A stretch of DNA of 16,751 nt from an uncultured Eubacteriales bacterium. Its GTDB lineage: Bacteria; Bacillota; Clostridia; Oscillospirales; Oscillospiraceae. Positions within the stretch are counted from its first letter, which is position 1, and each line of letters starts with the position of its first letter. The position numbers and the translations under genes are program-made. The stretch covers positions 1-16,751 of the forward strand of contig CABVBV010000030.1 of the NCBI GenBank assembly GCA_902496595.1. The letters run 5' to 3'. Under the pieces are notes generated by a model. That model searched no databases. It saw only the letters and a list, made by a program, of their open reading frames with translations, and had not been told where the DNA came from. This document shows, one piece after another, positions 1-15,497 of this stretch.

Positions 1-17
1 TGAGAAGGAGGGCGCAT

Positions 18-2303
18 ATGGACTTTACCGAACGTTCGACAAGGGTATACCGCACGAAGCAGCTCTATACGAAGGAGGAGCTGGCGCAGCGCGAATCGCT
101 CTGCGTACACGAGCAGCCGGCCTTCTGCGCCGCGGCCTGCCCGCTGCGGCTGGACGCGAGGGAGCTTTTGGGCTGCGCGGCTAAGGGCGAGCTCGCCCAG
201 GCCCGGGCCATGCTCGAGCGGGCGACGCCCTTTCCCGGCATCCTGGCCTCCGGCTGCGAGGCCCCATGCAAGGCCGCGTGCAGACTCAATGAGGTGCCGG
301 ACGCTCAGGCCGTGGACATCCCGGCCATAGAGCGGGCCGCCATGCGGCACGGGGCGGCGCGGACGGGAAAGGGTCTTCTGAAGTTCAAGAAGAAAAAGAC
401 CGCCGCCGTTTTCGGCGCGGAGCTCTTCACGCTCGTCGTCGCGGGGGAACTGGCGGGCAAGAGCTACCCCACCAGGTTCTGCGTCGCCGAGGGCTCGGCC
501 GAGGAACTCATCGACAAGTGCGCGCCGTTTTTGTCCCCTGAGGACAGGGCCGCGGAGATAAAGAGGCTCGAGGCCATGGATTTGGAGCTCAAATTCGGCT
601 CGGAGCTCACGCCGGAGCTCGTGCGCGGCGCGGGCGCGGACATAGTCTGCGTCTCGCAGGAGGTGCTGGCGCTGCTCGACGGGCCAAAAGAGCCCGACCC
701 CGTCACGCTCTGGTGTGCGGAGCTGGGCGTGCTGGCCCGCTCCGGTGAGGAAGGAGGCGTCATCGGCGCATTTTACGACGCGAGAAGGGCGGGAGTCTCG
801 GCGGACAGGCTGGCGCAGGGTATGTCTCCGGACAACGCCCGCGGCGAGGAGGGCCCCGTCGAGAGCCGGCTGTACACGGATCTCTCCGAGGCGAGGCCGG
901 GCGGGAGCCTGCCCGAGGGCGAGGGCTACACGGCGGAGCAGGCGAGGGCCGAGGCCGGGCGCTGCATACAGTGCCGCTGTGAGGAATGCGTCAAGGGCTG
1001 CGCCTGGCTGCGGCACTACGACAAGTTCCCGAGGATAATGACGCGGGAGATATACAACAACGTCGGCATAATAATGGGCGACCACATGATGAACGGGGCC
1101 ATCAACTCCTGCGCCCTCTGCGGCCAGTGTACCGTCACCTGCCCGAACGGCTACGACATGGCCGAGATCTGCCTCTCTGCGCGGCGGAACATGGTCGCCA
1201 CGGGCAAGATGAGCCTGGCCGTACACGAATTTGCGCTCTACGACCAGATCTTCTCGAACACCGAGGCGTTTTTGTGCCGGCCCGAGCCGGGATACGAGAC
1301 CTGCAGATATGTGTTTTTCCCGGGCTGCCAGGCCGGGGCCGTAGCGCCGGAGTCGGTCTGGCGGGCCTACGCCGATCTGAGGTCGAGGCTAAACGGCGGC
1401 GTGGGCATACTGCTCGGCTGCTGCGGCATCATCTCGCACTGGGCCGGAAGGGAGGGGCTCTTTGACGAGACCTGCGCACTGCTGCGCTCGGAGCTTGCAA
1501 AGCTGGGAGATCCCGTGATAATAACCGCCTGCCCGAGCTGCATGAAGACGCTCAAGGAGTTGGGCCTGGGCGAGTGCAGGGGCATCTGGGACGTGCTGCT
1601 CGAGCTCGGCCTGCCGGAGAGCGCGCCGAGGGCCGTAGGAGAGGCTGTCGTACACGATGCCTGCGGCGCGAGGGGCGACGCGGACACGCAGGAGGCGATA
1701 CGGAAGCTCGTGTCGGAGCTCGGCTGCGAGGTGAAGGAGCCGGAGTACACTGGCGACAGCGCCCCCTGCTGCGGCTACGGCGGGCTCGCGGGCTATGCAA
1801 AGCCCGAGGTCGCCGCGGACTACACGAAGGCCGCGCTCGAGGGCTGCGAGGGCTTGCAGCTCACCTACTGCATGGGCTGCCGCGACCGCTACGCACGTCA
1901 GGGCGCGGAGAGCGCGCACCTGCTGGAGCTCGTCTACGCATCCCCCGCCGGGTGCCCGCCGGGAATATCGGAAAAACGCAAGAACCGTTTGAGCCTGAAG
2001 CAGCGGCTGCTGCGCGACATCTGGAAGGAGGACACACACATGGCCCCGAGAGGCTACAAGATCGAGTACACCCCCGAGGTGAAGAAGCTCATGGAGCAGC
2101 GCATGGTGCTCGAGAGCGACATTGAGACCGTCATGCAGGCCTACCGCGAGGGAGGCGAGGCCATCTACGAGGCCGACACGGGCCTGCGCATCTCGCGCTA
2201 CCGGCTCGGCAACGTCACCTTCTGGGTGAAGTTCACGGAGGACGCCGAGGGCTATGTCATCCACAGCGCGTACAGCCACAGGATGACCGTCGAGACGAGG
2301 TAG
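18..2303 (+). CDS. Multidomain Fe-S oxidoreductase: GltD-type N-terminal Fe-S helical domain, degenerate dinucleotide-binding remnant, ferredoxin-like dicluster segment, two CCG (HdrB/GlcF/LutA-type) Cys-rich domains, and a ~85-aa C-terminal domain of unknown function
   Basis: 761-aa ORF. GAAGGAGGG RBS at 5-13 precedes ATG 18, and a TGA at 1-3 may end an upstream gene. The N-terminus (LCVHEQPAFCAAACPLRLD...GCEAPCKAAC) matches the Cys pattern of the glutamate synthase small subunit / DPD domain II Fe-S region. CIQCRCEECVKGC and CALCGQCTVTCP are ferredoxin-like cluster motifs. FFPGCQ..GCCG..CPSC and HDACG..PCCGYGG..YCMGC are two CCG-type domains. Confidence 0.8.
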   Translation: MDFTERSTRVYRTKQLYTKEELAQRESLCVHEQPAFCAAACPLRLDARELLGCAAKGELAQARAMLERATPFPGILASGCEAPCKAACRLNEVPDAQAVDIPAIERAAMRHGAARTGKGLLKFKKKKTAAVFGAELFTLVVAGELAGKSYPTRFCVAEGSAEELIDKCAPFLSPEDRAAEIKRLEAMDLELKFGSELTPELVRGAGADIVCVSQEVLALLDGPKEPDPVTLWCAELGVLARSGEEGGVIGAFYDARRAGVSADRLAQGMSPDNARGEEGPVESRLYTDLSEARPGGSLPEGEGYTAEQARAEAGRCIQCRCEECVKGCAWLRHYDKFPRIMTREIYNNVGIIMGDHMMNGAINSCALCGQCTVTCPNGYDMAEICLSARRNMVATGKMSLAVHEFALYDQIFSNTEAFLCRPEPGYETCRYVFFPGCQAGAVAPESVWRAYADLRSRLNGGVGILLGCCGIISHWAGREGLFDETCALLRSELAKLGDPVIITACPSCMKTLKELGLGECRGIWDVLLELGLPESAPRAVGEAVVHDACGARGDADTQEAIRKLVSELGCEVKEPEYTGDSAPCCGYGGLAGYAKPEVAADYTKAALEGCEGLQLTYCMGCRDRYARQGAESAHLLELVYASPAGCPPGISEKRKNRLSLKQRLLRDIWKEDTHMAPRGYKIEYTPEVKKLMEQRMVLESDIETVMQAYREGGEAIYEADTGLRISRYRLGNVTFWVKFTEDAEGYVIHSAYSHRMTVETR

Positions 2304-2307
2304 GGCC

Positions 2308-2529
2308 ATGGCCGAGGAAAAGAGCTATTACGTCGTGGACCCCGGCGGGCGCTACCGCTGCCTCAAGTGCGATGTGCCGCTCGTCAAAGGCAACGCGGTG
2401 TTCGGATACCTCGACAACGCCTTCCCGGTGGAGCTGCCGGTCTGCCCGAAATGCGGCTTTGTCTTCGTGCCCGAGGAGCTGGCCATGGGCAAGGTGCTCT
2501 CGGTGGAGAAGGTGCTGGAGGACAAGTAG
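2308..2529 (+). CDS. Small (73 aa) four-cysteine zinc-ribbon / rubredoxin-like protein, function unknown
   Basis: ATG 2308 lies 4 nt after the upstream TAG, with GAGGTAG just before it. Two CxxC pairs are present (CLKC and CPKC, about 25 residues apart). Its stop overlaps the GTG start of the next gene (TAGTG at 2527-2531). Confidence 0.65.
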   Translation: MAEEKSYYVVDPGGRYRCLKCDVPLVKGNAVFGYLDNAFPVELPVCPKCGFVFVPEELAMGKVLSVEKVLEDK

Positions 2530-3056
2530 TGGAGCGGCATCCGGGCGGCGCTGAGGCGACGCTGAGGCTCATAGAACTCGCGGGCATCGCCCCGCCCTGC
2601 CGCATGATAGACCTCGGCGCGGGCGCGGGCGAGGCCGTGAGGCTGCTGCGCTCCCTCGGTTTCGAGGCCCTTGGCATAGACCTCGCGCCCGGCGCGGACG
2701 TGGAGAATGGCGACATACTCGACCCGCCCTTTGACGGGGGCGGCTTCGACGCGGCGCTCTGCCAGTGCAGCTTCTACCTGACGGGAGACCCGGAGCGGGC
2801 GCTCATCGAGGCTGCGCGGCTGCTAAGGCCCGGCGGATGTCTGCTCTTTTCGGATATCTGCCCCGGAGGCGAGAGCCGGCTGCGCCGGGCGGCGGGGGAG
2901 GCCGGGCTCCGGGCGGAGACGGTCGAGGACATCACGGACGAGTGGAAACGGTATTACATCGAGGCCCTCTGGAGCGGCGAGGCAGAGCACCCGCCGGAGG
3001 GGGCCAAAAACTGCCGCTATCTCTGCGCGGTGTTCAGAAAGGGAAACACGGCTTGA
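2529..3056 (+). CDS. Class I SAM-dependent methyltransferase (~175 aa)
   Basis: Motif I is MIDLGAGAGEAV, with a downstream acidic loop (GIDLAP), DILDPPF, and post-motif LRPGGCLLFSD. I prefer the GTG start at 2529, which overlaps the upstream stop. The ATG at 2367 in the track would lie entirely inside the preceding gene. Confidence 0.75.
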   Translation: MERHPGGAEATLRLIELAGIAPPCRMIDLGAGAGEAVRLLRSLGFEALGIDLAPGADVENGDILDPPFDGGGFDAALCQCSFYLTGDPERALIEAARLLRPGGCLLFSDICPGGESRLRRAAGEAGLRAETVEDITDEWKRYYIEALWSGEAEHPPEGAKNCRYLCAVFRKGNTA

Positions 3057-3163
3057 GGGCGGACGTGGAGCGTCCGGTCTGGCTGGAAAACGACCCGGGC
3101 GGCCCGCTGCCGGAGAGATACAGGGACTGCCCGGCTATCAACTTCTGAAACGGAGGAGACGCC

Positions 3164-3571
3164 ATGGATGCATTCGACAGGATGCTTGAGCTCTCGAGGA
3201 AGGGCTATTTCTGCGCACAGATACTCATGCAGCTGGCGCTGGACGCCGAGGGGAAGGACTGCCCGGAGCTTATCCGCGCCATGTCCGGGCTGAACGCGGG
3301 CATCGGCTTCTCCGGCGGCCCCTGCGGGGCGCTGACCGGCGGGGCCTGCTTCCTCGGCTATTTCTCCGAGGGCATGGAGCCGCAGGAGCGCGACGCCATG
3401 CTGAAGGAGTTCCGCGACTGGTTTAAGGAGCGCACGGCGGAGTACGGCGGCGAGAGCTGCGACAGCATCCTCGCGGGCGACCCTGCGAACCAGCTGCGCC
3501 GCTGCCCGCCGCTTATACAGGAGGTCTACGGAAAATGCGCCGAGCTGCTCGCGGAGAGGGGCCTTGCCTGA
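3164..3571 (+). CDS. C_GCAxxG_C_C family protein (putative redox-active Cys protein)
   Basis: 135 aa. GGAGGAG RBS precedes ATG 3164. Diagnostic pattern: YFCAQ ... GGPCGALTGGAC ... GESCDSIL ... RRCP. Confidence 0.8.
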   Translation: MDAFDRMLELSRKGYFCAQILMQLALDAEGKDCPELIRAMSGLNAGIGFSGGPCGALTGGACFLGYFSEGMEPQERDAMLKEFRDWFKERTAEYGGESCDSILAGDPANQLRRCPPLIQEVYGKCAELLAERGLA

Positions 3572-4854
3572 TGTACGAGGTCTTTGCGAGGACAAGGAGC
3601 GTCTGCCCCGTCTGTCTCAGGACGATAGACGCCGAAAAAGCCGTGGCCGGGGACGGGTTTGTCCATCTCATCAAGACCTGCCCCGAGCACGGTTTTTTTG
3701 ATACGCTCATCTGGGAAGACGGAGCGGAGGGATACCTCGCCTGGGGCGGGGCCTGCTCCGGAGGCGAGCCGGACGACGCCTGCCCGCGAAGCTGCGGCCT
3801 GTGCGGAAACCACGAGAGCGGGGGCTGCTGCGTGCTGCTCGAGCTGACGCGCCGCTGCAACCTGCGCTGCCCGGTCTGCTTCGCTTCCGCCGGAGGGGAG
3901 GGCGACCTCGGCCTCGACGAGATAGCGGAGCTCTACGATATGCTCATGTCCCGCGGCGGGCCGTTCAACATCCAGCTCTCGGGCGGAGAGCCGACCATGC
4001 GGGACGATCTGCCCGAGGTCGTGAGGCTCGGCCGCGAGCGGGGCTTTACCTTCTTCCAGCTGAACACCAACGGCCTGCGCCTCGCATCTGAGGACGGCTA
4101 CGCGGAAAAGCTGCGCGGGGCCGGGGTCTCCTGCGCCTTTTTGCAGTTCGACGGGCTGCGGCCGGGGACGTATGAGGCGCTCCGGGGCCGCGACATCCTC
4201 GCGGAGAAGCTCCGGGCCATCGACGCCTGCGAGCGGGCGGGCCTGCCCGTAGTGCTCGTGCCGACCCTCGCGCCGGTTGTGAACGGGGACGAGATCGGCG
4301 ACATCCTGCGCTTCGCCCTGGGACGGGGGAAAATAGTGAGAGGCGTACACTTCCAGCCCGTGAGCTACTTCGGCCGCTGCGAGCTGCCGGAGCCGGGGCG
4401 CAGGCTGACCATCCCGCAGGTCATACGGGATATCGAGGCGCAGAGCGGGGGACTCATGAAGTTCGCGGATTTCGGCGGAGGCGGGGCCGAGAGCCCCTGG
4501 TGCAGCTTCCACGCGAGCTACCGCAAGCTCCCGGACGGGAGGCTCAAGGCCCTGCCGAGGCGCGAGAGCGCCTGCTGCTGCAAAAAAAGCTCCGAGGCCC
4601 GGGACTTCGTCGCCGACCGCTGGGGCCTCAGCTCGGCCCAGCGTGAGGACGAGGACGGCTTCGACCGCTTCATGCGCGAGGCCGTGGAGAACACCTTCAC
4701 CGTCTCCGGCATGGCCTTCATGGACGCGGACAGCCTCGAGCTGGACAGGCTCCGGCGCTGCTACATAAGCGAGGCCGACGCAGAGCGCGGCATGGTGCCC
4801 TTCTGCGCCTACAACCTCACGGCCCGCGACGGGAGGGCGCTGTACAGGAAATGA
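3571..4854 (+). CDS. Radical SAM enzyme with N-terminal zinc ribbon and Cys-containing C-terminal extension (~427 aa)
   Basis: CNLRCPVC is the CX3CX2C radical SAM motif, followed by the glycine-rich SAM motif LSGGEPT. The N-terminus has CPVC...TCPEHG. The C-terminus has WCSFHAS, ACCCKK and MVPFCAYN. I chose the ATG 3571 start because it overlaps the upstream stop (TGATG). The track start at 3535 would overlap the previous gene by 37 nt. Confidence 0.8.
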   Translation: MYEVFARTRSVCPVCLRTIDAEKAVAGDGFVHLIKTCPEHGFFDTLIWEDGAEGYLAWGGACSGGEPDDACPRSCGLCGNHESGGCCVLLELTRRCNLRCPVCFASAGGEGDLGLDEIAELYDMLMSRGGPFNIQLSGGEPTMRDDLPEVVRLGRERGFTFFQLNTNGLRLASEDGYAEKLRGAGVSCAFLQFDGLRPGTYEALRGRDILAEKLRAIDACERAGLPVVLVPTLAPVVNGDEIGDILRFALGRGKIVRGVHFQPVSYFGRCELPEPGRRLTIPQVIRDIEAQSGGLMKFADFGGGGAESPWCSFHASYRKLPDGRLKALPRRESACCCKKSSEARDFVADRWGLSSAQREDEDGFDRFMREAVENTFTVSGMAFMDADSLELDRLRRCYISEADAERGMVPFCAYNLTARDGRALYRK

Positions 4855-6071
4855 GAAAGACGAGACTTGAGGACTGGATATGCGAAGTCGAGGGCCTTCC
4901 AGGCCTCGACCGCGAGACGCTGGACAGGATACAGCTTCGGCGAATAAACGAGCTGCTGGCGCGGGAAAAGACGCGAAACGGCTTCTACAAGGGCCTGCCG
5001 GAGCGGCTGGGCAGCCTCGCGGAGCTCAGACGCCTGCCCTTCACGACGCCGGAGCAGCTCGCAGAGAACGCGCCGGGCCTGCTGCTCGGCTCGCAGGCCG
5101 AGGTGAGCCGCATCATCTCCGGAGCTACGAGCGGCACGACGGGGCCGTCGAAGCGGGTATTCTACACCGAGCGGGATATTGAACACACGGTCGGCTTCTT
5201 CGCCGCGGGCATCTCGGAGCTGGTGTCGGAGGGCGAGGCGGTCTGCGTCGCCATGCCCTTCTCCGGGCCGGACGGGCTGGGAGAGCTCATCTGCCGGGCC
5301 GTGGAGCGCCTGGGCGCAAGGCCGGTGAGGATGGGCGTGGGCAGGAGCCTCGGCGAGCAGGCGGAAATGCTCGGGGCCGAGAGGCCGGAGGCCTACATCG
5401 GTATGCCGGTGCCGCTGCTGGGGCTCATCCGCTGGATGGGTTCTCCGGGGAGCCTGCGCCGGGCGCTGGTCTCGGGCGACGCCTGCCCCGAGGGCGTTAT
5501 GCTGGAGCTGGAGCGGCTGCTCGGGACGCGGCTCTTCCCGCACTACGGCTCGCGGGAGATGTGCCTCGGCGGGGCGGTGACTTGTGCGGCGCACGAGGGT
5601 ATGCACCTGCGGGAGAACCACGTCGTTGCGGAGATAGTCTCGCCGGAAGGAGAGGCGCTGCCCGACGGGGAGTACGGAGAGCTGGTCGTCACCACCGCCG
5701 ATATGCAGGCCATGCCGCTCATACGCTACAAAACCGGCGACTACACGCGATTCCTGCCCGGCCCCTGCCCCTGCGGCGGTGCCACGAGAAGGCTGGACAG
5801 GCTCAGCCGAATGGACTCCGGGGCGGGCATCGAGAGCCTGGACGACGCTCTCTTCAGGCTTCCCGGCCTCATCGACTATGAGGCGGCCCTCTCCGGCGGC
5901 CTGCTCAGGCTGAGGGCGGTCGGCCGGACGGAGCGGGAGCTCCTGGAGAGCGAGGTACGCAGGCTCATGCCAGGACTTGAGGTCAGGCTCGAGCTGAACG
6001 CGGCAGCGGCGGAGTTCAGAGGCTTTTTCCGCGGCAAGCGCAGGCTGCTTGACTGCCTGGATCGATTCTGA
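4851..6071 (+). CDS. Adenylate-forming enzyme of the phenylacetate-CoA ligase (PaaK) / coenzyme F390 synthetase type
   Basis: 406 aa. ATGA start/stop overlap with the radical SAM gene. Motifs: P-loop-like TSGTTGPSKRV, YGSREM, RYKTGDY, and CPCGGATRRLDRLSRMD, which is typical of the PaaK C-terminal domain. Confidence 0.75.
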   Translation: MRKTRLEDWICEVEGLPGLDRETLDRIQLRRINELLAREKTRNGFYKGLPERLGSLAELRRLPFTTPEQLAENAPGLLLGSQAEVSRIISGATSGTTGPSKRVFYTERDIEHTVGFFAAGISELVSEGEAVCVAMPFSGPDGLGELICRAVERLGARPVRMGVGRSLGEQAEMLGAERPEAYIGMPVPLLGLIRWMGSPGSLRRALVSGDACPEGVMLELERLLGTRLFPHYGSREMCLGGAVTCAAHEGMHLRENHVVAEIVSPEGEALPDGEYGELVVTTADMQAMPLIRYKTGDYTRFLPGPCPCGGATRRLDRLSRMDSGAGIESLDDALFRLPGLIDYEAALSGGLLRLRAVGRTERELLESEVRRLMPGLEVRLELNAAAAEFRGFFRGKRRLLDCLDRF

Positions 6072-6099
6072 ATTGGAATCGATACGCGGACAAAACGAA

Positions 6100-6128
6100 T
6101 TGCTCCCTCACAGCGGCGTATCTATACT
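6100..6128 (+). promoter_or_regulatory. Candidate sigma-70-type internal promoter (TTGCTC-17 nt-TATACT) upstream of the UbiD gene
   Basis: Hexamers at 6100-6105 and 6123-6128 with 17-nt spacing, inside the 94-nt gap between the ligase stop and the UbiD start. Motif match only. Confidence 0.35.
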
Positions 6129-6165
6129 GGTAAGTGTAGAATTACGGTCGGGAGGGGGCATTTTT

Positions 6166-7659
6166 GTGGATATCCATCGTTTTGAGAACAGAGTCAGGGA
6201 TCTGCGCTCGGCCCTGGACTATTTGAGGAGCCTGGACGGGCAGCTGGTCGAAACGGATGTGGAGACAGATCCGGAGGCGGAGCTCTCCGGAGTATACAGG
6301 AGGGTCGGGGCCGGCGGCACGGTGATGCGTCCGACAAGGACTAACGGGCCTGCGATGCTCTTTCGGAATTTGAAGGGTTTTGACGAGGCCTCCGCTGTCA
6401 TAGGCGTGCTCGCCTCGAGGGAGAGGGTCGCGGCCCTGCTCGGATGCAGGAGCGCAGACCTGGGCAGGCTGCTTTGCGACTGCGTGGCGTCCCCGGTGGA
6501 GCCGGTCGTGAAGGAGGGGCCCGCGCCCTGCCGCGAGGTAGTACACCTTGCTTCGGAGCCGGACTTCGACCTCAGAGCGCTCCTGCCCGCTCCGACGAAC
6601 ACGCCTCTGGACGCAGGGCCGTACATAACGCTCGGTATGTGCTACGCCACTCATCCGGATACCGGACGTTCGGATGTGACGATACACAGACTCTGCATCC
6701 AGGGCAGGGACGAGCTCTCCATCTTCCTGCAGCCGGGCAGCCGGCACATCGGAGCCATGGCGGACAGGGCCGAGGAACTTGGGCGCCCTCTGCCGATATC
6801 CGTCTCCATCGGCGTCGACCCTGCGATAGAGATCTGCGCCTGCTTCGAGCCGCCCACTACCCCGCTGGGATATGACGAGCTTTCGATAGCCGGGGCGCTC
6901 AGGGGAGAACCTGTTGAGCTCTGCCGCTGCCTCACCGTGGACGAGAGGGCCATTGCGAACGCCGAGTTCGTAATCGAGGGAGAGATAATCCCCGGGGTGA
7001 GGGTGCAGGAGGATCAGAACTCGGGGACGGGCATCGCCATGCCCGAATTTCCGGGCTACAACGGGGTCGCGAGTTCCGAGTGCAGGCTCCTCAAGGTCAA
7101 GGCGCTGACGCACAGGAAAAAGCCCATACTCCAGACCTGCATAGGCCCGAGCGAGGAGCACGTCAACATGGCGGGCATCCCGACCGAGGCGAGCATCCTG
7201 GGCCTGCTCGAGCGGGCCATGCCGGGAAAGGTCAAAAACGTTTACGCCCACCGCTCCGGAGGAGGGAAGTATCTGGCCGTGCTCCAGATTTGCAAAGCGG
7301 TTCCCACCGACGAGGGCCGCCAGAGACAGGCGGCGCTTCTGGCCTTCTCGGCCTTCCCAGAGCTCAAGCAGGTCATACTGGTGGACGAGGACGTGGACGC
7401 ATTCGACACCGACGATGTGCTCTGGGCCATGACCACGAGGTATCAGGGAAACCTGGACACGGTGTTCATACCCGGAGTCCGCTGCCATCCGCTCGACCCG
7501 AGCGCCGGGCCGGAGTACGACCCGAGGATACCGGGCCGAGGCGTATCCTGCAAGACCATCTTCGACTGCACCGTGCCCTTCGCTCAGAAAGAGCGCTTCC
7601 GCAGGGCGGGCTTCCTCGAAGTAGACCCGGGACGCTGGCTGCCGGGCTGGGAGGACTGA
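6166..7659 (+). CDS. UbiD-family (prFMN-dependent) decarboxylase/carboxylase, divergent subfamily
   Basis: About 497 aa from GTG 6166, with GGAGGGGG RBS at 6151-6158. Family-typical segments include GPYITLGM, SDVTIHRL, PLPISVSIGVDP, GYDELSIAGALRGEPVEL and AEFVIEGEI. The track start at 6049 overlaps the ligase and has no RBS. Confidence 0.8.
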   Translation: MDIHRFENRVRDLRSALDYLRSLDGQLVETDVETDPEAELSGVYRRVGAGGTVMRPTRTNGPAMLFRNLKGFDEASAVIGVLASRERVAALLGCRSADLGRLLCDCVASPVEPVVKEGPAPCREVVHLASEPDFDLRALLPAPTNTPLDAGPYITLGMCYATHPDTGRSDVTIHRLCIQGRDELSIFLQPGSRHIGAMADRAEELGRPLPISVSIGVDPAIEICACFEPPTTPLGYDELSIAGALRGEPVELCRCLTVDERAIANAEFVIEGEIIPGVRVQEDQNSGTGIAMPEFPGYNGVASSECRLLKVKALTHRKKPILQTCIGPSEEHVNMAGIPTEASILGLLERAMPGKVKNVYAHRSGGGKYLAVLQICKAVPTDEGRQRQAALLAFSAFPELKQVILVDEDVDAFDTDDVLWAMTTRYQGNLDTVFIPGVRCHPLDPSAGPEYDPRIPGRGVSCKTIFDCTVPFAQKERFRRAGFLEVDPGRWLPGWED

Positions 7660-7660
7660 G

Positions 7661-8233
7661 ATGGAGGCTCGGCTCACGGTGGGCATTAGCGGGGCCTCGG
7701 GGGCCTCGTTGGCGCTCAGCTTTTTGAAACTGGCTCGAAAAAGCGGCGTTCCCACCGAGCTCATCGTCACGAGCGGAGGAGAGAGGACGCTCAGGGACGA
7801 GCTGGGCCTGGGGCCGGAGGCGCTCTCCGGCCTCGTGGACGAGGTGTACGACTGCAGGGATATCGGCGCGGCCCCGGCTTCGGGCAGCCGCCCGTCCCTG
7901 GGCATGGCCGTTGTCCCGTGCAGCATGAAGACCCTCGCCGGCATCGCCTCGGGTTACAGCGAGAACCTCTTGCTCAGAGCCGCGGATGTAGCGCTCAAGG
8001 AGAGGCGCAGGTTGGTTCTTGCGGCGAGGGAGACGCCGCTCTCGGCCATCCATCTCAGGAATATGCTGGAGCTCAGCCAGGCCGGGGCGGTCGTCTTTCC
8101 CCCCGTGCCGCTCTGGTATGCCGGGCCGAAGACGATGGAGCAGATGGAGCTTCAGCTCTCCGCGAGGCTGCTGAGCCTCTTCGGGATCGTCACCCCGGAG
8201 CTCCACGTCTGGACGGAGAGCGGACAGGAGTAG
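7661..8233 (+). CDS. ubiX: UbiX-family flavin prenyltransferase (prFMN synthase)
   Basis: 190 aa, starting 1 nt after the UbiD stop. Motifs: GISGASGASLA, VPCSMKTLAGIASGYSENLLLRAADVALKERRRLVL, RETPLS. All are typical of UbiX/Pad1. Confidence 0.85.
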   Translation: MEARLTVGISGASGASLALSFLKLARKSGVPTELIVTSGGERTLRDELGLGPEALSGLVDEVYDCRDIGAAPASGSRPSLGMAVVPCSMKTLAGIASGYSENLLLRAADVALKERRRLVLAARETPLSAIHLRNMLELSQAGAVVFPPVPLWYAGPKTMEQMELQLSARLLSLFGIVTPELHVWTESGQE

Positions 8234-8300
8234 CCCGCCTCCAGGCCCGCGGAGTTTCGCGGCCGCCGCGCCGTACCATTTGCCTTCATAAATAAGCTGT

Positions 8301-8324
8301 GCCGGAGCGCCTGAGCGCTCCGGC
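8301..8324. terminator. GC-rich hairpin between convergent ubiX (+) and trxA (-); candidate bidirectional terminator
   Basis: GCCGGAGCGC-CTGA-GCGCTCCGGC is a perfect 10-bp stem with a 4-nt loop. Flanks are modestly T-rich on both strands. Confidence 0.5.
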
Positions 8325-8355
8325 ATTCTGCGATTTGAAGGGATGGATGGGAAAA

Positions 8356-8664: not shown

Positions 8665-8730
8665 TTTAAATTCCTCCCGTGTTCTTTCTTTGTCTGCATG
8701 ATAGCACACGGGATACGGGCGAACCGTAAC

Positions 8731-9612
8731 TTAGTCACATTTCCTCCAGAGCAGCCTGTTGCCCTCGACCAGCGTCCCGACCAGGCCAGCGTCGAGCAGG
8801 TAGGCCAGGATGGATTTCACGGTGCTGCCCACCAGAACATATTGCTCCATGGTCAGCTGCAGGCCGTAACTGTCGAAGGCCAGCTTCAGGATGTCCTCGA
8901 AACCCTTCGGCTCTCCGCAGAGGCCAAGGACGAAGCCGCAGAGGCCCTCGACGTGCCGGAGGTTCAGCTCGGCGAGCGGCCCTATGTCCTCCGCCGCCTC
9001 GGCGTGCGCCGGGATATAGAGCTTTGCGCCCAGTCCGGGCAGCTTCCTGAGCGTTTCCATATAGGCCGCGACGTCGTAGATAAAGGGGAAACCGTACTTC
9101 TCCAGGGTCGCCGCGCTCGAGAGGCAGTCCGCGATGTAGGCCGTGCCGTCCGGAGTCATATATCCGGCCATGTCGAAGTAGTGCCCAGGCAGAGGGATGA
9201 GCTCTATCTCTTCGGGAAAGCCCCCGGACGAAATGAGCTCCGCCGGAGCGGGCTGGGCCATCAGGAACTTGTGCCTGAGCGGTTTCGGAGGGAAGCCGCC
9301 GTAGAGGAAGGCGGATTCCAGCACAGGGTTCCTTGTGAACGCCGCCTCAATATCCGGAGCGAATATCCGGCAGCCGGTCTGCTTCTGCAGGTACTGACAG
9401 CCTCCGACATGGTCTGCGTTCGAGTGCGTGACGAGTATGCCCCGGAGCTTCCAGGAGTTTCTGTCGAGGATCTGCCTGACCTTCCGGCCGGCGTCCTTGT
9501 CGTTGCCGCTGTCGATGAGCCAGACTTCCGAGTCCGAGGCCAGCCAGAGCCCGATTTTTGCCGGACAGTCGATATAGTAACTCCGCTCTCCGGCCTGAAC
9601 AAGTTCAAACAT
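8731..9612 (-). CDS. MBL-fold metallo-hydrolase family protein with variant metal motif
   Basis: 293 aa. [12 protein letters not shown] corresponds to the HxHxDH motif with Asn replacing the second His. Downstream His/Asp positions (LPGHY, PAHAE) fit the MBL fold. Confidence 0.7.
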
Positions 9613-9635
9613 TCAAAGCCCCCCTTTTTTCAGCT

Positions 9636-9664
9636 AATTTATCACATTAAACCGCGAAACGCAA
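9636..9664 (-). promoter_or_regulatory. Candidate promoter for the MBL-trxA unit (TTGCGT-17 nt-TAAATT on the minus strand)
   Basis: By-eye hexamers with 17-nt spacing, about 25 nt upstream of the MBL start codon. Confidence 0.3.
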
Positions 9665-9684
9665 GCCCCGTCTCGCACCGGCGC

Positions 9685-9712
9685 TTTACAAATCGGTGTT
9701 GTATGTTAAAAT
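9685..9712 (+). promoter_or_regulatory. Candidate fhs promoter (TTTACA-16 nt-TAAAAT with TGn extended -10)
   Basis: TTTACA at 9685-9690 and TGTTAAAAT ending at 9712. It lies 30 nt upstream of the fhs ATG in an AT-rich divergent intergenic region. Confidence 0.5.
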
Positions 9713-9741
9713 ATAAGGGAATTTTGACTGTGAGGTGCCAC

Positions 9742-11403
9742 ATGACCGATATTGAGATCGCCCAGGCGGCAAAGCCGCTGCCCATAACAGAAGTCGCCGC
9801 AAGAGCCGGCATCGACGAGGGGTATATCGAGTGCTACGGCGGGAGCAAGGCGAAGATAGACCCCGCGCTGCTCGACGAACCGGGGGAAGAGGGAAAGCTC
9901 GTCCTGGTCACTGCGATAAACCCGACGCCTGCCGGGGAGGGCAAAACGACCACCACCGTCGGACTCGCGGACGCGCTGCGGAAGCTCGGGAAACGCTCGG
10001 TCGTGGCGCTCAGGGAGCCCTCGCTCGGCCCGGTCTTCGGTATAAAGGGCGGCGCGGCCGGGGGAGGCTATGCCCAGGTGATACCGATGGAGGACATCAA
10101 TCTGCACTTCACCGGCGATTTCCACGCCATAGGCGCGGCGAACAACCTGCTCGCCGCCATGCTGGACAACCACATCTATCAGGGCAACACGCTGAACATT
10201 GACCCGAGGCGCATAACCTGGAGACGCGCCGTCGACATGAACGACCGGCAGCTCAGGGCAATAACAGACGGGCTTGGCGGCAGGGTCAACGGGGTGCCCA
10301 GGGAGGACGGTTTCGACATAACCGTCGCGAGCGAGGTCATGGCCGTGCTCTGCCTCGCCTCTGGCATCCGGGATTTGAAGGAGCGGCTGTCGAGGATTGT
10401 GGTGGGCTACACCTACGACGAGAAGCCGGTGACGGCAGGGCAGCTCAAGGCCGCCGGAGCCATGGCGGCGCTCTTGAAGGATGCGATAAAGCCCAACCTG
10501 GTTCAGACGCTCGAGGGCACGCCGGCCTTTGTACACGGAGGGCCGTTCGCGAACATCGCCCACGGCTGCAACAGCGTGACCGCCACGAGGATGGCGCTCA
10601 GGCTGGGTGAGTACGCTGTAACGGAGGCGGGCTTCGGAGCGGATCTGGGCGCGGAGAAGTTCTTCGACATAAAGTGCCGTATGTCCGGGCTGAGACCCTC
10701 GGCGGTAGTCATAGTCGCGACGGTGAGAGCGCTCAAGCACCACGGCGGCGCGGCGAAGGACGAGCTGGGAGCTGAAGACCTCGCGGCGCTGGAGAGGGGC
10801 CTGCCCAACCTGCTCCGGCACGTCGACAATGTTAAGAACGTCTACGGCCTGCCCTGCGTCGTGGCGATAAACAGGTTCCCGACGGATACGGAGGCGGAGC
10901 TGGAGCTGGTCGGCCGCCGTTGCCGCGAGCTCGGAGTGAACGCGGCGCTCTCCGAGGTCTGGGCAAAGGGAGGCGACGGAGGGCTCGAACTGGCAAAGGA
11001 GGTCGTCAGGCTCTGCGGCGAGGAGAACTGCTTCCGCTTCGCCTATCCGGACGAGCTGGACATAAGGTCGAAGATAGAGGCGATAGCGAAGAAAGTGTAC
11101 CGGGCCTCCGCCGTGGCTTTCACCGGGCCCGCTGAGAAGGAGCTCGGGCAGCTCGAAGCCCTGGGCTTCGGCGGGCTGCCGGTATGCATGGCGAAGACGC
11201 AGTATTCGTTTTCCGACGACCCGGCCAAGAAGGGCGCGCCTGAGGGCTTCACCCTGACGGTCAGGAAACTGAAAGTCTCTGCCGGAGCGGGCTTCATCGT
11301 GGCTCTGACCGGAGACATCATGACCATGCCCGGCCTCCCGAGATCCCCGGCGGCAGAGCGCATAGACGTGGACGAGACCGGCCGCATCTCCGGCCTTTTC
11401 TGA
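9742..11403 (+). CDS. fhs: Formate-tetrahydrofolate ligase
   Basis: 553 aa from [15 protein letters not shown]. It carries the [16 protein letters not shown]-loop and is full-length FTHFS-like throughout. The track ORF (8698..) has a 348-codon upstream extension that is antisense to the MBL gene and is not credible. Confidence 0.92.
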
Positions 11404-11509: not shown

Positions 11510-12163
11510 TCAGCCGAGGCCGAAGCCAATGGCCAGCAGGGTTTGGGCTGAGATATAGGTCAGCATGACGGCGACGTCGGCGGCGTTGCTGTCACCATCC
11601 CTGAAAGTCTCAAAAGAGAGGATCCCGTCGGAGCAGAGGAAGAGGCAGGCTCCGGCGAGCAGCCAGCCCGCTCCGGGGGCCCCGGCCCTGAGCCCTATGA
11701 ACGAGGCGGAGCCCAGAGAGGCGAGCAGCAGCCCATAGAGCAGTCCCGGCAGTCTCAGAGGTTTGGGGATGCGCTTTCTCAGGACGAAAAAGATCACGAG
11801 CGCTACCGCCCCCGGCACCAGGGTCGCCGCTAAGGCGGTTATGAGTTTCGGCTGGGCCGCCGCTGCGAGCGCGCCGATATGCGCAACGTAGAGGACGTGT
11901 CCCAGCCCGAAAGCCGCCATGCCGAGGCCCAGGAAGACTTCCCTGTGTTTGTAGATCATGAATATGTCCCCGGCCCAGCCGCAGAGCATGGCGGCGAGGA
12001 CAACCGCCGAAGGTCTCGGCGCGATGCTCAGGTAGAGCAGGCAGATGAGCGGCATGAGCAGCAGCTTGGTGAAGTATCTCAGCTTCTGCCTGCCCAGACC
12101 GCAGGCGGCAAGGTGCGTGACGGAAGCCGCGGCTGTTGCGGCGGCGGTGAGCACTGTTACCAT
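11510..12163 (-). CDS. YhhN-family (lysoplasmalogenase/TMEM86-like) integral membrane protein
   Basis: 217 aa from MVTVLTAA, with GGGAGG RBS 5 nt upstream. It is polytopic and hydrophobic, with YhhN-like segments (FTKLLLMPLI, GWAGDIFM, FGLGHVLY, LFLCSDGIL). Confidence 0.65.
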   Translation of the reverse strand: MVTVLTAAATAAASVTHLAACGLGRQKLRYFTKLLLMPLICLLYLSIAPRPSAVVLAAMLCGWAGDIFMIYKHREVFLGLGMAAFGLGHVLYVAHIGALAAAAQPKLITALAATLVPGAVALVIFFVLRKRIPKPLRLPGLLYGLLLASLGSASFIGLRAGAPGAGWLLAGACLFLCSDGILSFETFRDGDSNAADVAVMLTYISAQTLLAIGFGLG

Positions 12164-12191
12164 ATGAACCTCCCGATATTTATCCGCCCCC

Positions 12192-12220
12192 ATAATAACC
12201 TATGCGCAGTTTCGTGTAAA
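12192..12220 (-). promoter_or_regulatory. Candidate promoter for the YhhN gene (TTTACA-17 nt-TATTAT on the minus strand)
   Basis: Hexamers at 12220-12215 and 12197-12192 (minus-strand orientation), in the 71-nt AT-rich gap after the long moeA stop. Confidence 0.45.
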
Positions 12221-14163: not shown

Positions 14164-14164
14164 T

Positions 14165-15388: not shown

Positions 15389-15408
15389 CCTGTCTCCCCC
15401 TTTACACG

Positions 15409-15437
15409 AGTTTAAACCGATACCCCGGCTTTTGCAA
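15409..15437 (-). promoter_or_regulatory. Candidate promoter for the moeA-moeA operon (TTGCAA-17 nt-TAAACT on the minus strand)
   Basis: By-eye hexamers with 17-nt spacing. The -10 overlaps the 8-bp palindrome GTTTAAAC (15410-15417). The leader would be very short. Confidence 0.35.
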
Positions 15438-15445
15438 GTCCGCCC

Positions 15446-15474
15446 TTGCGCCTCGGGGCTGCAGAGGTTAAACT
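15446..15474 (+). promoter_or_regulatory. Candidate promoter for the ThiF/MoeB-like gene (TTGCGC-17 nt-TAAACT)
   Basis: By-eye hexamers with 17-nt spacing in the divergent intergenic region. Confidence 0.3.
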
Positions 15475-15497
15475 AAAGAGTGAGGAGGCGATTGCGC

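Follow-up and report, generated by a model that had tools for sequence, protein, structure and literature searches.

The window analysed here, a stretch of 16,751 nucleotides from an uncultured Eubacteriales bacterium, carries eight tightly packed genes on the forward strand between positions 18 and 8233. An earlier note on this DNA had read them as one pathway, a six-gene core with a UbiD/UbiX pair appended, and had offered two hypotheses: (A) maturation or modification of a Mo/W or other redox cofactor, or (B) anaerobic activation and decarboxylation of an aromatic or unsaturated acid. The locus raises the question of whether the eight genes belong together and which process they serve. The region 18-8233 is two units, not one eight-gene pathway.

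Gene order and junctions

The coordinates of all eight genes, and every junction described earlier, were reproduced on the sequence. G1 (18-2303, 761 aa) is followed after a 4-nt gap (2303/2308) by G2 (2308-2529, 73 aa), whose stop overlaps the GTG start of G3 (2529-3056, 175 aa) in a TAGTG (2527-2531). G4 (3164-3571, 135 aa) overlaps G5, which encodes TrsS (3571-4854, 427 aa), in a TGATG (3569-3573), and G5 overlaps G6 (4851-6071, 406 aa) in an ATGA (4851-4854). The genes for UbiD (6166-7659, GTG start, 497 aa) and UbiX (7661-8233, 190 aa) are separated by 1 nt (7659/7661). A clear Shine-Dalgarno-like purine run lies 5' of seven of the eight starts; the G6 start, within the ATGA overlap, has only a weak AGGAAA.

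Two spacers interrupt this packing, one of 107 nt between G3 and G4 (3057-3163) and one of 94 nt between G6 and UbiD (6072-6165). Alignment with loci L175 and L083 showed the former to be an insertion (about 105 nt) peculiar to this sequence, the G3 stop and G4 start being 2 nt apart in relatives; the spacer has no Rfam match. The TGA at 1-3, 14 nt ahead of the G1 start, is probably the stop of an upstream same-strand gene cut by the window edge, and in the closest relatives (91% identical) such a gene terminates 17 nt 5' of G1; the transcription unit therefore probably starts outside the window. Its end is likely a GC-rich hairpin of 11 pairs (8300-8325) between UbiX and a convergent thioredoxin gene.

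The conserved cassette and its neighbours

By profile searches and synteny, genes 1-6 (18-6071) form the "DVU_1553-1558 / TrsS" cassette of NCBIfam, which is catalogued, widespread and functionally uncharacterised. The curated HMM cut-offs were passed by five of the six genes, confirming the family names that the earlier note had proposed. The six genes are colinear in 53 of 80 loci surveyed in other species, with a further 22 cut by contig ends and 5 variants, so that the arrangement is far beyond chance. The earlier note had matched the genes to no characterised pathway, and likewise no HMM, PDB or literature match assigns the cassette to one.

G1 (diclust_near_Sec, NF045663, 763 bits, cut-off 530; Pfam Fer4_20, Fer4_17 and CCG) is a multi-cluster Fe-S oxidoreductase with an N-terminal GltD/DPD-type Fer4_20 domain, a degenerate Rossmann-like segment without GxGxxG, a 2x[4Fe-4S] ferredoxin domain, one or more HdrD-like CCG domains and a C-terminal domain, some 100 aa long, that the alignment shows to be conserved. 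The zinc-ribbon protein G2 (DVU_1557 family, DUF7479; NF045645, 91.6 bits, cut-off 60; PF24292) always follows G1 in the surveyed loci. G3, a class I SAM methyltransferase of DVU_1556-like type (NF045667; Pfam Methyltransf_11), is the sole cassette gene under its HMM cut-off (103.8 versus 155 bits); it nevertheless occupies the orthologous position in every locus, and a D-GAG-G motif and one Cys are conserved. G4 is a DVU_1555-family C-GCAxxG-C-C protein (NF045669, 142 bits, cut-off 103; PF09719) with five cysteines invariant in the alignment (C17, C54, C62, C99 and C114), and its AF2 model (all-helical, seven helices, pLDDT 94.8) gave no fold match in the PDB. G6, a member of the DVU_1553 family (NF045666, 332 bits, cut-off 300), is a PaaK-like, adenylate-forming ligase that matches PDB 4R1L (E=1e-32), scores only 106-108 bits on the PaaK models and conserves the adenylation motifs TSGTxG..KR, YGSRE, TGD..R and a C-terminal KR.

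The radical SAM protein TrsS (NF045646, 517 bits, cut-off 490), present here in its Cys form without selenocysteine, is closely homologous to Tes, the tetraether lipid synthase of archaea (PDB 7TOL, GDGT-MAS/Tes; E=7.8e-70), and retains all four Tes metal sites. Alignment to the Tes ligands, with motifs taken from PMC9433317 and PMC13459092, gave C12/C15/C37/H40 for the rubredoxin-like site, C71/C75/C78/H81 for [4Fe-4S]N, C96/C100/C103 for the radical SAM cluster and M381 as the equivalent of the labile Met of [4Fe-4S]C; the invariant C397 and C412 are probably among the Cys ligands of the last cluster.

The gene 5' of G1 in relatives is an aldehyde oxidoreductase (AOR) or an SLH-domain protein that follows one. 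A D. gigas MOP-type molybdopterin AOR (NF045668, 1527 bits, cut-off 1100) stands directly 5' of the cassette in 41 of the 50 loci that reach far enough, and farther upstream in most of the other nine. Conversely, among AOR-seeded loci having at least 7 kb downstream of the AOR, G1 was found in 42/42 and TrsS in 38/42, and AOR and G1 adjoin on the same strand in almost all loci. The AOR gene is not visible within this window and probably lies just 5' of it; the earlier note recognised the cassette and could not have seen this partner off the edge. In D. vulgaris, Aor is DVU_1559 (PMC10920352), and the NCBIfam names of the cassette families bear the adjacent locus tags DVU_1551 to DVU_1557. A few AOR loci (L149, L150 and L115) have no TrsS, so that not every AOR of the MOP-type family depends on it.

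Genes for Mo maturation also accompany the cassette, namely those for a MocA-like NTP transferase (DVU_1551 family), a cysteine desulfurase of EF2568 type, a MoeA-like protein, ModABC and an "aldehyde oxidoreductase maturation factor" of the XdhC family. Distant lineages have the MocA-like gene, either alone or together with the desulfurase, embedded between G4 and TrsS, and MocA-like::TrsS fusion proteins are found in four independent 50%-identity clusters, two of them confirmed in their contigs. This genomic context, together with the adjacent AOR, supports a Mo-enzyme or Mo-cofactor link as put forward in hypothesis A; its original basis, nearby moeA and thiF genes, did not hold, as these are not syntenic in relatives. 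Methyltransferase::TrsS fusions (five representative clusters) and TrsS::ligase fusions (six) tie G3, G5 and G6 into one process. Some metagenome fusions could be frameshift artefacts, especially those of TrsS and ligase, whose genes normally overlap by ATGA.

Possible roles of the cassette

The explanation we prefer, to which we give about an even chance, is that the cassette is an accessory system of the D. gigas MOP-type (MCD) AORs, consisting of a redox partner and a tailoring branch, with UbiD/UbiX independent of it. The GltD-N-terminal-like and HdrD-like multi-Fe-S protein G1, with the Zn-ribbon G2, would be the dedicated redox partner of an FAD-less AOR, taking electrons from its 2x[2Fe-2S] chain to a thiol/disulfide acceptor, for which the Cys-rich G4 is the obvious candidate, and/or to TrsS. 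The minimal locus L149 (AOR-G1-G2) and loci L088 and L089 (G1-G2-TrsS::DUF5714), in all of which G2 stays with G1, support a G1/G2 redox unit common to AOR and TrsS.

G3, G4, TrsS and G6 would form a radical-SAM tailoring branch in Mo-cofactor maturation and delivery. The target of this branch would be MCD, a precursor bound by a MocA-like or XdhC-like factor, or a protein or thiol carrier working for the pathway. TrsS would likely abstract hydrogen from a C-H bond and then form a C-S or C-C bond with the help of a cluster, a proposal drawn from its full complement of Tes metallocentres, among them the labile-Met [4Fe-4S]C cluster, which captures a substrate carbon radical on a cluster sulfur; methylation by G3 and carboxylate adenylation by G6 would be companion steps. 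The target may be broader than Moco, since a second cluster (L083) has TrsS-like, ligase and methyltransferase genes beside CobW-like and SIR2 genes without an adjacent AOR, and a reduced cassette adjoins corrinoid uptake and salvage genes.

The MOP structures from D. gigas and D. desulfuricans, solved at high resolution, contain MCD in its ordinary form and are not known to show any unusual modification of the protein. The MOP enzyme is active as a purified homodimer, and a stable modification of cofactor or protein is thus not evident. This weakens the maturation reading and favours a possible but rather doubtful alternative, in which the cassette is a small-molecule pathway and the AOR one of its catalytic steps rather than a client. 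The AOR would interconvert aldehyde and acid, G6 would adenylate or thioesterify the acid, TrsS would functionalise an unactivated alkyl or aryl C-H and G3 would methylate; G1, G2 and G4 would move electrons, and the reductant for radical SAM cleavage could come straight from the low-potential aldehyde/acid couple. The near-constant same-strand adjacency of AOR and G1 fits this scheme, as do a bona fide adenylate-forming G6 nearest to phenylacetate-CoA ligases and the action of Tes on hydrophobic chains. However, MocA-like::TrsS fusions and MocA-like or cysteine desulfurase genes between G4 and TrsS are hard to fit to catabolism, no transporter, regulator or further catabolic gene is conserved with the cassette in the surveyed loci, and the corrinoid-linked reduced cassette and the CobW of the paralogous cluster point to metallocofactors.

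A role of the cassette in handling soft metalloids or chalcogens (Se, S or As) seems improbable to us, whether it would make or deliver the labile terminal Mo=S/Se ligand or form an organometalloid through a radical SAM and ArsM-like methyltransferase pair; binding would then take place at G4, which is Cys-rich, and at the vicinal Cys (or Sec) motif of TrsS. TrsS proteins are classed as a (seleno)protein family (PMC13188914), TrsS carries a CCC motif at 335-337 where many homologues have long CC-rich inserts, and a fusion of TrsS with an MbdU-like "metal-binding double selenoprotein"/DUF5714 domain exists. Fifteen of the 80 loci have an EF2568-type cysteine desulfurase / selenocysteine-lyase-like gene within the cassette, and the next-best matches of G3-type methyltransferases include the arsenite and arsinothricin ArsM models. 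Against this, none of the TrsS genes in the 160 cassette or AOR loci surveyed in total has an in-frame TGA, the conserved neighbours of the cassette do not include selD, ars or selenium-transport genes, and the ArsM likeness, with scores far under the cut-offs, reflects the generic class I methyltransferase fold only.

That TrsS is a bacterial membrane-spanning-lipid synthase in an incidental neighbourhood is very unlikely, even though it aligns with Tes at all four metal sites and a role as brGDGT synthases has been suggested for bacterial Tes homologues (PMC8941075; PMC13159169). The Tes model (NF045702) scores 292 bits on TrsS against a cut-off of 450, and about 120 residues within the Tes C-terminal domain (chain residues 330-452) find no alignable counterpart in TrsS, being replaced by about 70 different, Cys-rich residues, a loss that may bear on lipid binding. 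Lipid-biosynthesis neighbours are lacking, whereas synteny and fusions with Mo-enzyme genes are tight.

The UbiD/UbiX module

UbiD (6166-7659) is a prFMN-dependent decarboxylase of the hydroxyarylic-acid VdcC/LpdC type with three Pfam UbiD domains (433 bits on the VdcC model, under the cut-off of 650), whose GTG start is the same in an independent gene call on identical metagenome contigs; UbiX (7661-8233) is its flavin prenyltransferase partner (NF004685, 202.5 bits, cut-off 188). The spacer preceding them (6072-6165) contains TTGCTC-17-TATACT, which weakly resembles a promoter, as well as a strong ribosome-binding site, and no terminator was detected in it; the pair may be co-transcribed with the cassette by read-through. 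Recurrence in three independent metagenome contigs (L175, L081 and L082) establishes the adjacency as real and rules out an assembly chimera.

The adjacency is nevertheless confined to this lineage. UbiD/UbiX occur in none of the 160 surveyed loci and in none of four loci of the 91%-identical relatives, which have DUF3021, LytTR, MFS and TetR genes in their place. Nucleotide synteny with these relatives breaks at about 5800, shortly ahead of the spacer, and from about 5500 on the GC content falls to about 0.62-0.64. UbiD orthologues (75-87% identity) stand in self-contained TetR-MFS-UbiD-UbiX or LysR-UbiD-esterase-UbiX-LpdD modules. On this comparative evidence UbiD/UbiX is an independent phenolic-acid decarboxylase module and not part of the cassette, one that would have landed in a variable region 3' of it. 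Hypothesis B, by which all eight genes activate an acid through the ligase and decarboxylate it through UbiD/UbiX, thereby loses its basis and is hardly credible, despite the shared strand, the short gap, the recurrence in this lineage and an AOR that could in principle yield an aromatic acid for the decarboxylase.

The region joins a cassette that is already known and catalogued to a UbiD/UbiX pair that is its neighbour in this lineage only.

Gene layout and family assignments

Eight consecutive ORFs are found on the + strand between positions 18 and 8233. The earlier note had described them as tightly packed, and this proved accurate when every junction was read again on the sequence. G1 (18-2303) belongs to the NF045663 pyridine nucleotide-disulfide oxidoreductase/dicluster-binding proteins (763 bits against a cut-off of 530) and is followed after a gap of 4 nt by G2 (2308-2529), a member of the DVU_1557 family (NF045645, 91.6 bits against a cut-off of 60). 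The GTG start of the methyltransferase gene G3 (2529-3056) lies in a TAGTG overlap. After a 107-nt spacer comes G4 (3164-3571), a DVU_1555 C-GCAxxG-C-C protein (NF045669, 142 bits against 103), then G5 (3571-4854), which starts within TGATG and encodes the radical SAM (seleno)protein TrsS (NF045646, 517 bits against 490), and G6 (4851-6071), which starts within ATGA and encodes a DVU_1553 AMP-dependent ligase (NF045666, 332 bits against 300). A second spacer of 94 nt separates G6 from the UbiD gene G7 (6166-7659, GTG start), and a gap of 1 nt separates the latter from the UbiX gene G8 (7661-8233; NF004685, 202.5 bits against 188). A clear purine-rich ribosome-binding site precedes seven of the eight starts; that of G6, at the ATGA overlap, is only weak.

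The NCBIfam DVU_155x names given in the earlier note were right, with five of the six cassette proteins passing the curated HMM cut-offs. The sixth, G3, stays below its cut-off (NF045667 DVU_1556 methyltransferase, 103.8 bits against 155), yet this family is its best match and it is the positional orthologue of the family's members. In Pfam, G2 is a DUF7479 protein and G5 consists of an N-terminal "HMPTM" zinc ribbon and a radical SAM domain, while an alignment of G4 reveals five invariant cysteines. G6 shares its fold and adenylation motifs with PaaK (PDB 4R1L, 2Y27) but fails the PaaK equivalog cut-offs (TIGR02155, 106.6 against 646.3 bits; NF041878, 108 against 700).

The Pfam domains of G1 are Fer4_20, a dicluster ferredoxin domain and a CCG domain. 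It thus resembles HdrD, other CCG (hetero)disulfide reductases and proteins with GltD/DPD-type domains in having Fer4_20, a 2x[4Fe-4S] ferredoxin and CCG domain(s), but its matches to the HdrC, TfrB, GlpC and DsrK models are weak and all far below the cut-offs, and its fused architecture, which has no FAD/NAD motif, is specific to NF045663. A GxGxxG motif was sought in residues ~120-300 and is missing from the window protein and from all 14 aligned homologues (AAVFGAELFTLVVAGELA); by its sequence, the segment behind the name "pyridine nucleotide-disulfide oxidoreductase" looks like a vestigial Rossmann domain. Among solved structures, relatives of G1 cover only the N-terminal 60-135 residues.

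Bases 1-3 of the window are TGA, 14 nt ahead of the G1 start. The nearest relatives have a gene on the same strand that ends 17 nt upstream of G1, so the window edge has very probably cut off the beginning of the transcription unit. At the other end, an 11-pair GC-rich hairpin (8300-8325) is placed between UbiX and a convergent thioredoxin gene, with no further ORF in the interval between UbiX and this terminator. No terminator was detected in the spacer between G6 and UbiD, where a promoter-like TTGCTC-17-TATACT can be seen by eye, although it fails the scanner threshold. An Rfam search over the window gave zero matches, including to the Moco riboswitch. Further downstream, a 901-aa ORF (8698-11403) was rejected as a single gene; it is the formate-tetrahydrofolate ligase gene, whose true start is near 9736-9742, with an artefactual 5' extension that crosses a metallo-beta-lactamase-fold gene on the - strand (8731-9612).

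The spacer between G3 and G4 is itself an insertion of ~105 nt (3057-3163) relative to both L083, one of the closest relatives, and the 98%-identical contig L175, in which 2 nt separate the G3 stop from the G4 start. It opens with a short inverted repeat (GGACG-TGGAG-CGTCC) and gives G4 a new ribosome-binding site and start.

Association of the cassette with an aldehyde oxidoreductase

When one genome per GTDB species was scanned by pattern, 516 stretches with a TrsS relative were found, and the best 80 loci were taken with 10-kb flanks. These loci are mostly from Oscillospiraceae but include Megasphaera, Solobacterium/Bulleidia, Mogibacterium, Tissierellia and Peptococcaceae. By tBLASTn, G1-G2-G3-G4-TrsS-ligase are colinear on one strand in 53 of the 80, in the order seen in the window, which answers the concern that the genes might be juxtaposed by chance. 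The other 27 comprise 22 cut by a contig end and five variants (two without G3 and G4, two with G4 relocated and one degraded).

Recurrent neighbours were found by clustering all flanking ORFs and scanning representatives for families. They include a molybdopterin-dependent aldehyde oxidoreductase (AOR) of ~917 aa of the type known from Desulfovibrio gigas as MOP (NF045668, 1527 bits against a cut-off of 1100), a DVU_1551-family MocA-like NTP transferase, often with a ModE-type HTH, the XdhC family aldehyde oxidoreductase maturation factor (NF045664), ModA, ModB, ModC, a MoeA-like protein and a CobC-like histidine phosphatase. The AOR gene is directly adjacent to G1, upstream on the same strand, in 41 of the 50 loci with at least 2.8 kb of upstream sequence, and in most of the others it is one gene further away. 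An EF2568-type cysteine desulfurase is inserted between G4 and TrsS at 15 of the 80 loci. Of the companions that the earlier note asked about, the MocA-like NTP transferase, the AOR and the MoeA-like protein do travel with the core; UbiD and UbiX do not (none in the 160 loci of this and the converse survey). At one locus (L002, 6455-6556) the stretch from the AOR stop to the G1 start contains a terminator-like hairpin followed by a T run (GGGGGAGGCCGGGCGCCTCCCCCATTTTG), a sign that some species may express the AOR separately from the cassette or at a different level.

For the converse survey, metagenome contigs were scanned with an alignment of twelve AORs (from loci L005-L083), spanning Oscillospiraceae, Negativicutes and Erysipelotrichia, and 80 loci were obtained. 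They come from soils, peat, sediments and bioreactors, with AOR identity down to 58%. G1 is present in 42 of 42, and TrsS in 38 of 42, AOR loci with at least 7 kb downstream. The XdhC-like gene is found at 32 of these 80 loci and at 14 of the 80 seeded with TrsS. In distant lineages a MocA-like gene, with or without the cysteine desulfurase, is embedded between G4 and TrsS. Exceptions are reduced units: L149 consists of AOR-G1-G2 followed by unrelated genes, and L150 is without TrsS and the methyltransferase. The twelve aligned AORs share 77-95% identity between bacterial classes, whereas the cassette proteins of the same loci share only 45-65%, which points either to extreme constraint on the AOR or to separate transfer histories.

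Fusions of TrsS were sought in a profile-free search of 1.84 billion representative proteins, which gave 539 clusters at E<=1e-30; the best 150 were examined, with partners identified by local BLASTP. Among these 150, the MocA-like NTP transferase is fused to TrsS in four clusters (P0125, P0132, P0161 and P0269), the DVU_1556 methyltransferase in five, the DVU_1553 ligase in six and an MbdU-like/DUF5714 metal-binding domain in one. Since the ligase and TrsS genes normally overlap, some of the ligase fusions could be frameshift artefacts. Two of the MocA fusions were confirmed in their contigs: in one, a GCAxxG gene precedes an 861-aa NTP_transf_3+HD+TrsS gene and one further gene, and in the other the order is G1, DUF7479, methyltransferase, GCAxxG, MocA::TrsS, ligase and histidine phosphatase. 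The DUF5714 fusion belongs to a reduced G1-G2(DUF7479)-TrsS unit (L088 1-9817, and L089), which is directly upstream of CbiM, CbiN and CbiZ and adjoins a BtuF/FecCD/ABC corrinoid-type transporter; the contig ends upstream of the unit. G1 and G2 are thus the members most tightly linked to the AOR and also accompany TrsS in this reduced unit, and G3, TrsS and G6 are interlinked by fusions. Two-way synteny and the fusions connect the cassette with the MOP-type AOR and with molybdenum-cofactor maturation genes.

In the closest relatives (L083-L086, with 91%-identical TrsS) a MocA-like gene on the - strand is followed on the + strand by an AOR of 913 aa, an SLH-domain protein and G1-G6, and then on the - strand by DUF3021, LytTR, MFS, TetR and YhhN genes. 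The SLH-domain protein of 614-627 aa between AOR and G1 (L083 4695-6539, L085 4656-6539) is presumably extracellular and wall-anchored, which is odd in a cytoplasmic redox operon, and it may be the source of the stop codon at window positions 1-3. Nucleotide similarity to the window runs from position 5 to ~5800 and then ends, YhhN (window 11510-12193) being the next shared gene, so that UbiD, UbiX, thioredoxin, the metallo-beta-lactamase-fold gene and Fhs occupy a variable slot. After YhhN, on the opposite strand, L083 (16314-21284), L085 and L086 have another gene cluster, a paralogous mini-cassette in which a metallochaperone takes the place of the AOR. Its products are a PaaK-like ligase, a further radical SAM protein above the TrsS cut-off (534 bits), a protein of 65 aa, a SIR2 deacylase, a GTPase resembling CobW and a methyltransferase of the DVU_1556/ArsM-like kind. 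The window lacks this cluster and has two moeA genes at that position. At 12235-16127 it encodes, as the first reading had it, a MoeA fused to a periplasmic-binding domain, another MoeA and a ThiF/MoeB-like protein, which that reading took as weak support for a role of the operon in maturation of a molybdenum or other redox cofactor. This use of them had to be given up; the block is not syntenic with the closest relatives, in which the second TrsS-like cluster follows YhhN, and its proximity to the cassette is lineage-specific.

Comparison of TrsS with tetraether lipid synthase

After TrsS, the model that G5 matches best is that of the archaeal tetraether lipid synthase Tes (NF045702), with 292 bits against a cut-off of 450; the match is confined to profile positions 2-318 of 486. 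An alignment of residues 7-302 with GDGT-MAS/Tes (MJ0619; PDB 7TOL) has E=7.8e-70 over 296 residues, and residues 375-419 align with the C-terminal cluster region of 7TOL. Tes has a rubredoxin-like C-x2-C-x20-C-x2-H iron site, a [4Fe-4S]N cluster on C73/C77/C80 and a histidine (Lloyd et al., PMC9433317), a CX3CX2C radical SAM cluster and a [4Fe-4S]C cluster with a labile Met439 (PMC9433317; reviewed in PMC13459092). A carbon-sulfur intermediate with the substrate has been described on one Tes [4Fe-4S] cluster (PMC9433317) and assigned to [4Fe-4S]C (PMC13459092).

The corresponding sites of TrsS are C12-x2-C15-x21-C37-x2-H40, C71-x3-C75-x2-C78-x2-H81 and C96-x3-C100-x2-C103, all invariant in the TrsS alignment. 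M381 aligns with Met439, and C397 and C412 are nearby; these three residues are likewise invariant, and the two cysteines would be among the Cys ligands of [4Fe-4S]C. All four Tes metallocentres therefore have counterparts in TrsS at the level of sequence. The differences lie in the C-terminal region, where Tes chain residues 330-452 (~120) are without counterpart and TrsS has ~70 Cys-rich residues including a CCC (335-337), and in the bacterial host and molybdenum-enzyme neighbourhood of TrsS. TrsS is thus predicted to be like Tes at the level of its cofactors, and fails as a Tes on score and in the C-terminal region.

Long, low-complexity vicinal-Cys inserts (..SCCGCG..ACCGTPAETGCCGEPAESCC..) were observed at the position of the window CCC (335-337) in many TrsS-family proteins, including P0128, P0129, P0177, P0189, P0190 and P0194, and have the appearance of a metal- or metalloid-binding tail.

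According to its NCBIfam name, "(seleno)protein", selenocysteine is optional in TrsS, which a 2026 review (PMC13188914) counts among the selenoprotein families, citing Haft & Tolstoy 2025 (mSystems 10:e0141724). The window TrsS is the cysteine form, with an uninterrupted ORF of 427 aa. Across the 160 loci there was no in-frame TGA in TrsS and no conserved in-frame TGA in any cassette gene. The older annotation of MJ0619 as a pterin methylase, from which the Pfam name "HMPTM" originates, was dropped as a lead, as Lloyd et al. could not corroborate it (PMC9433317).

Proposed role and significance

The cassette itself is already catalogued. A consecutive NCBIfam block (NF045663-NF045669, with NF045645 and NF045646) covers its families together with the AOR, XdhC and NTP-transferase partners, and the same six families, in what would be the same order, belong to the NCBIfam-defined neighbourhood DVU_1551-DVU_1559 of D. 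vulgaris Hildenborough. The relatives of the window share with that neighbourhood the NF045668 AOR, the DVU_1551-family NTP transferase and the XdhC-family AOR maturation factor. The window differs in its Cys-form TrsS, short methyltransferase (175 aa), G1 without a dinucleotide-binding motif, ~105-nt insertion between G3 and G4 and succeeding UbiD/UbiX genes, and the AOR, MocA-like and XdhC-like genes are not inside it. In the literature on the DVU locus tags we found only a proteomics table, which names DVU_1559 as the D. vulgaris Aor (PMC10920352), and no demonstrated function for the cassette. Because the family names carry tags neighbouring DVU_1559, the Desulfovibrio arrangement would match that of the Firmicutes, judging from the numbering of the locus tags.

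Maturation of xanthine-oxidase-family enzymes employs a MocA cytidylyltransferase, an XdhC/PaoD chaperone and a NifS-like sulfurase. Homologues of all three travel with the cassette or inside it, although none is in the window. In contrast, a radical SAM enzyme, a methyltransferase, an adenylating ligase, a GCAxxG protein and an HdrD-like protein are foreign to this canonical system. The FAD domain, which is the electron exit in other members of the family, is missing from MOP-type AORs. G1 may serve as a dedicated acceptor of AOR electrons, handing them to a thiol/disulfide couple; G4, with its invariant cysteines, would be the obvious candidate for the recipient and TrsS another. TrsS, the methyltransferase and the ligase may form a route for tailoring a cofactor or a carrier. 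Because of the TrsS-MocA-like fusion and the interleaving with the MocA-like enzyme and the desulfurase, the arena of this trio would be the pathway that matures and delivers the molybdopterin cofactor of the AOR (MCD). By analogy with Tes, TrsS might abstract hydrogen to give a carbon radical that is caught on [4Fe-4S]C and leads to a C-S or C-C bond.

An AOR redox partner joined to a molybdenum-cofactor tailoring branch is the overall model we prefer, and we consider the case for and against it to be about evenly balanced. The main counter-argument is that high-resolution structures of D. gigas MOP contain ordinary MCD and are not known to show an odd modification; the purified MOP homodimer is also active. 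More tentative is the possibility that the TrsS cassette represents an unrecognised radical-SAM branch of molybdenum-cofactor maturation or redox coupling, specific to MOP-type AORs, in which Tes-like C-S or C-C chemistry would take place on the pterin cofactor or a carrier.

A small-molecule pathway in which the AOR is one step is compatible with the ordinary MCD of the D. gigas structures, but the MocA-like::TrsS fusions are hard to reconcile with it, and we hold such a pathway to be rather unlikely. Handling of S-, Se- or As-type metalloids, or provision of a terminal ligand, appears improbable, with the ArsM-like methyltransferase of the paralogous cluster on one side and the lack of an in-frame TGA in TrsS at the 160 loci on the other. 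That TrsS is a lipid synthase, as its resemblance to Tes could imply, seems very improbable, no lipid-biosynthesis gene having been found in the 160 neighbourhoods.

The least credible reading is the eight-gene route for activation and decarboxylation of an aromatic or unsaturated acid that the earlier note had considered. G7 is a UbiD-family protein, with the N-terminal, Rift-related and C-terminal UbiD domains (PF20695, PF01977 and PF20696) all above gathering scores and an adjoining UbiX flavin prenyltransferase. The best models in comparison with VdcBCD/LpdBCD are VdcC for G7 (433 bits against a cut-off of 650) and VdcB/UbiX for G8 (VdcB, 205 against 290), both below the Vdc cut-offs, and the window has no gene for a small subunit of the VdcD/LpdD type. 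The arrangement of cassette and UbiD/UbiX is genuine: other samples yielded contigs with the same junction (L175, L081 and L082), which begin inside G6 or G1. However, tBLASTn with the window proteins found UbiD/UbiX at none of the 80 TrsS-seeded loci, and the pair is equally absent from the 80 AOR-seeded loci and from L083-L086. UbiD orthologues of 74-87% identity are widespread in Oscillospiraceae and Lachnospiraceae; the 87% orthologue is found in a TetR-MFS-UbiD-UbiX arrangement and a 75% orthologue in LysR-LysR-UbiD-esterase-UbiX-LpdD. Such contexts are characteristic of a VdcBCD/LpdBCD-type module for phenolic-acid decarboxylation that is complete in itself, and the eight-gene route has thereby lost its only support. 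The description of the operon as a DVU_155x cassette with UbiD/UbiX appended holds for the identity of the cassette, by HMMs and gene order, and not for the membership of UbiD/UbiX, which are incidental to it.

The window therefore adds little in itself, being one more instance of the cassette whose seemingly special UbiD/UbiX pair is not part of it. New here are the synteny counts in both directions, the recognition of minimal units (AOR-G1-G2 and G1-G2-TrsS) and of MocA::TrsS fusions, the finding that TrsS conserves the Tes metal sites, and the incidental nature of UbiD/UbiX. With a BLAST criterion of E<1e-50, homologues of Tes in bacteria have been put forward as branched-GDGT synthases (PMC8941075, PMC13159169), and TrsS proteins would probably be retrieved by the criteria of PMC8941075. 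This calls for caution in geochemistry when such homologues serve as genomic markers of brGDGT producers; if the radical-SAM branch of cofactor maturation is real, the candidates counted as brGDGT synthases include hundreds of non-lipid enzymes.

The MOP-type AOR is a textbook molybdenum enzyme, although opinion is not settled on which acceptor takes its electrons in the cell or on whether its maturation has special requirements. Its near-ubiquitous six-gene companion, which includes a close relative of an archaeal tetraether-lipid enzyme, points to a missing part of the biology of this enzyme; the set occurs in gut Oscillospiraceae, Megasphaera and Erysipelotrichaceae, in metagenomes of soils and sediments and, by NCBIfam naming, in Desulfovibrio. 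With the synteny, the survey from the AOR side and the MocA-like::TrsS fusions, an unknown operon becomes a specific hypothesis that is genetically testable in the tractable D. vulgaris Hildenborough.
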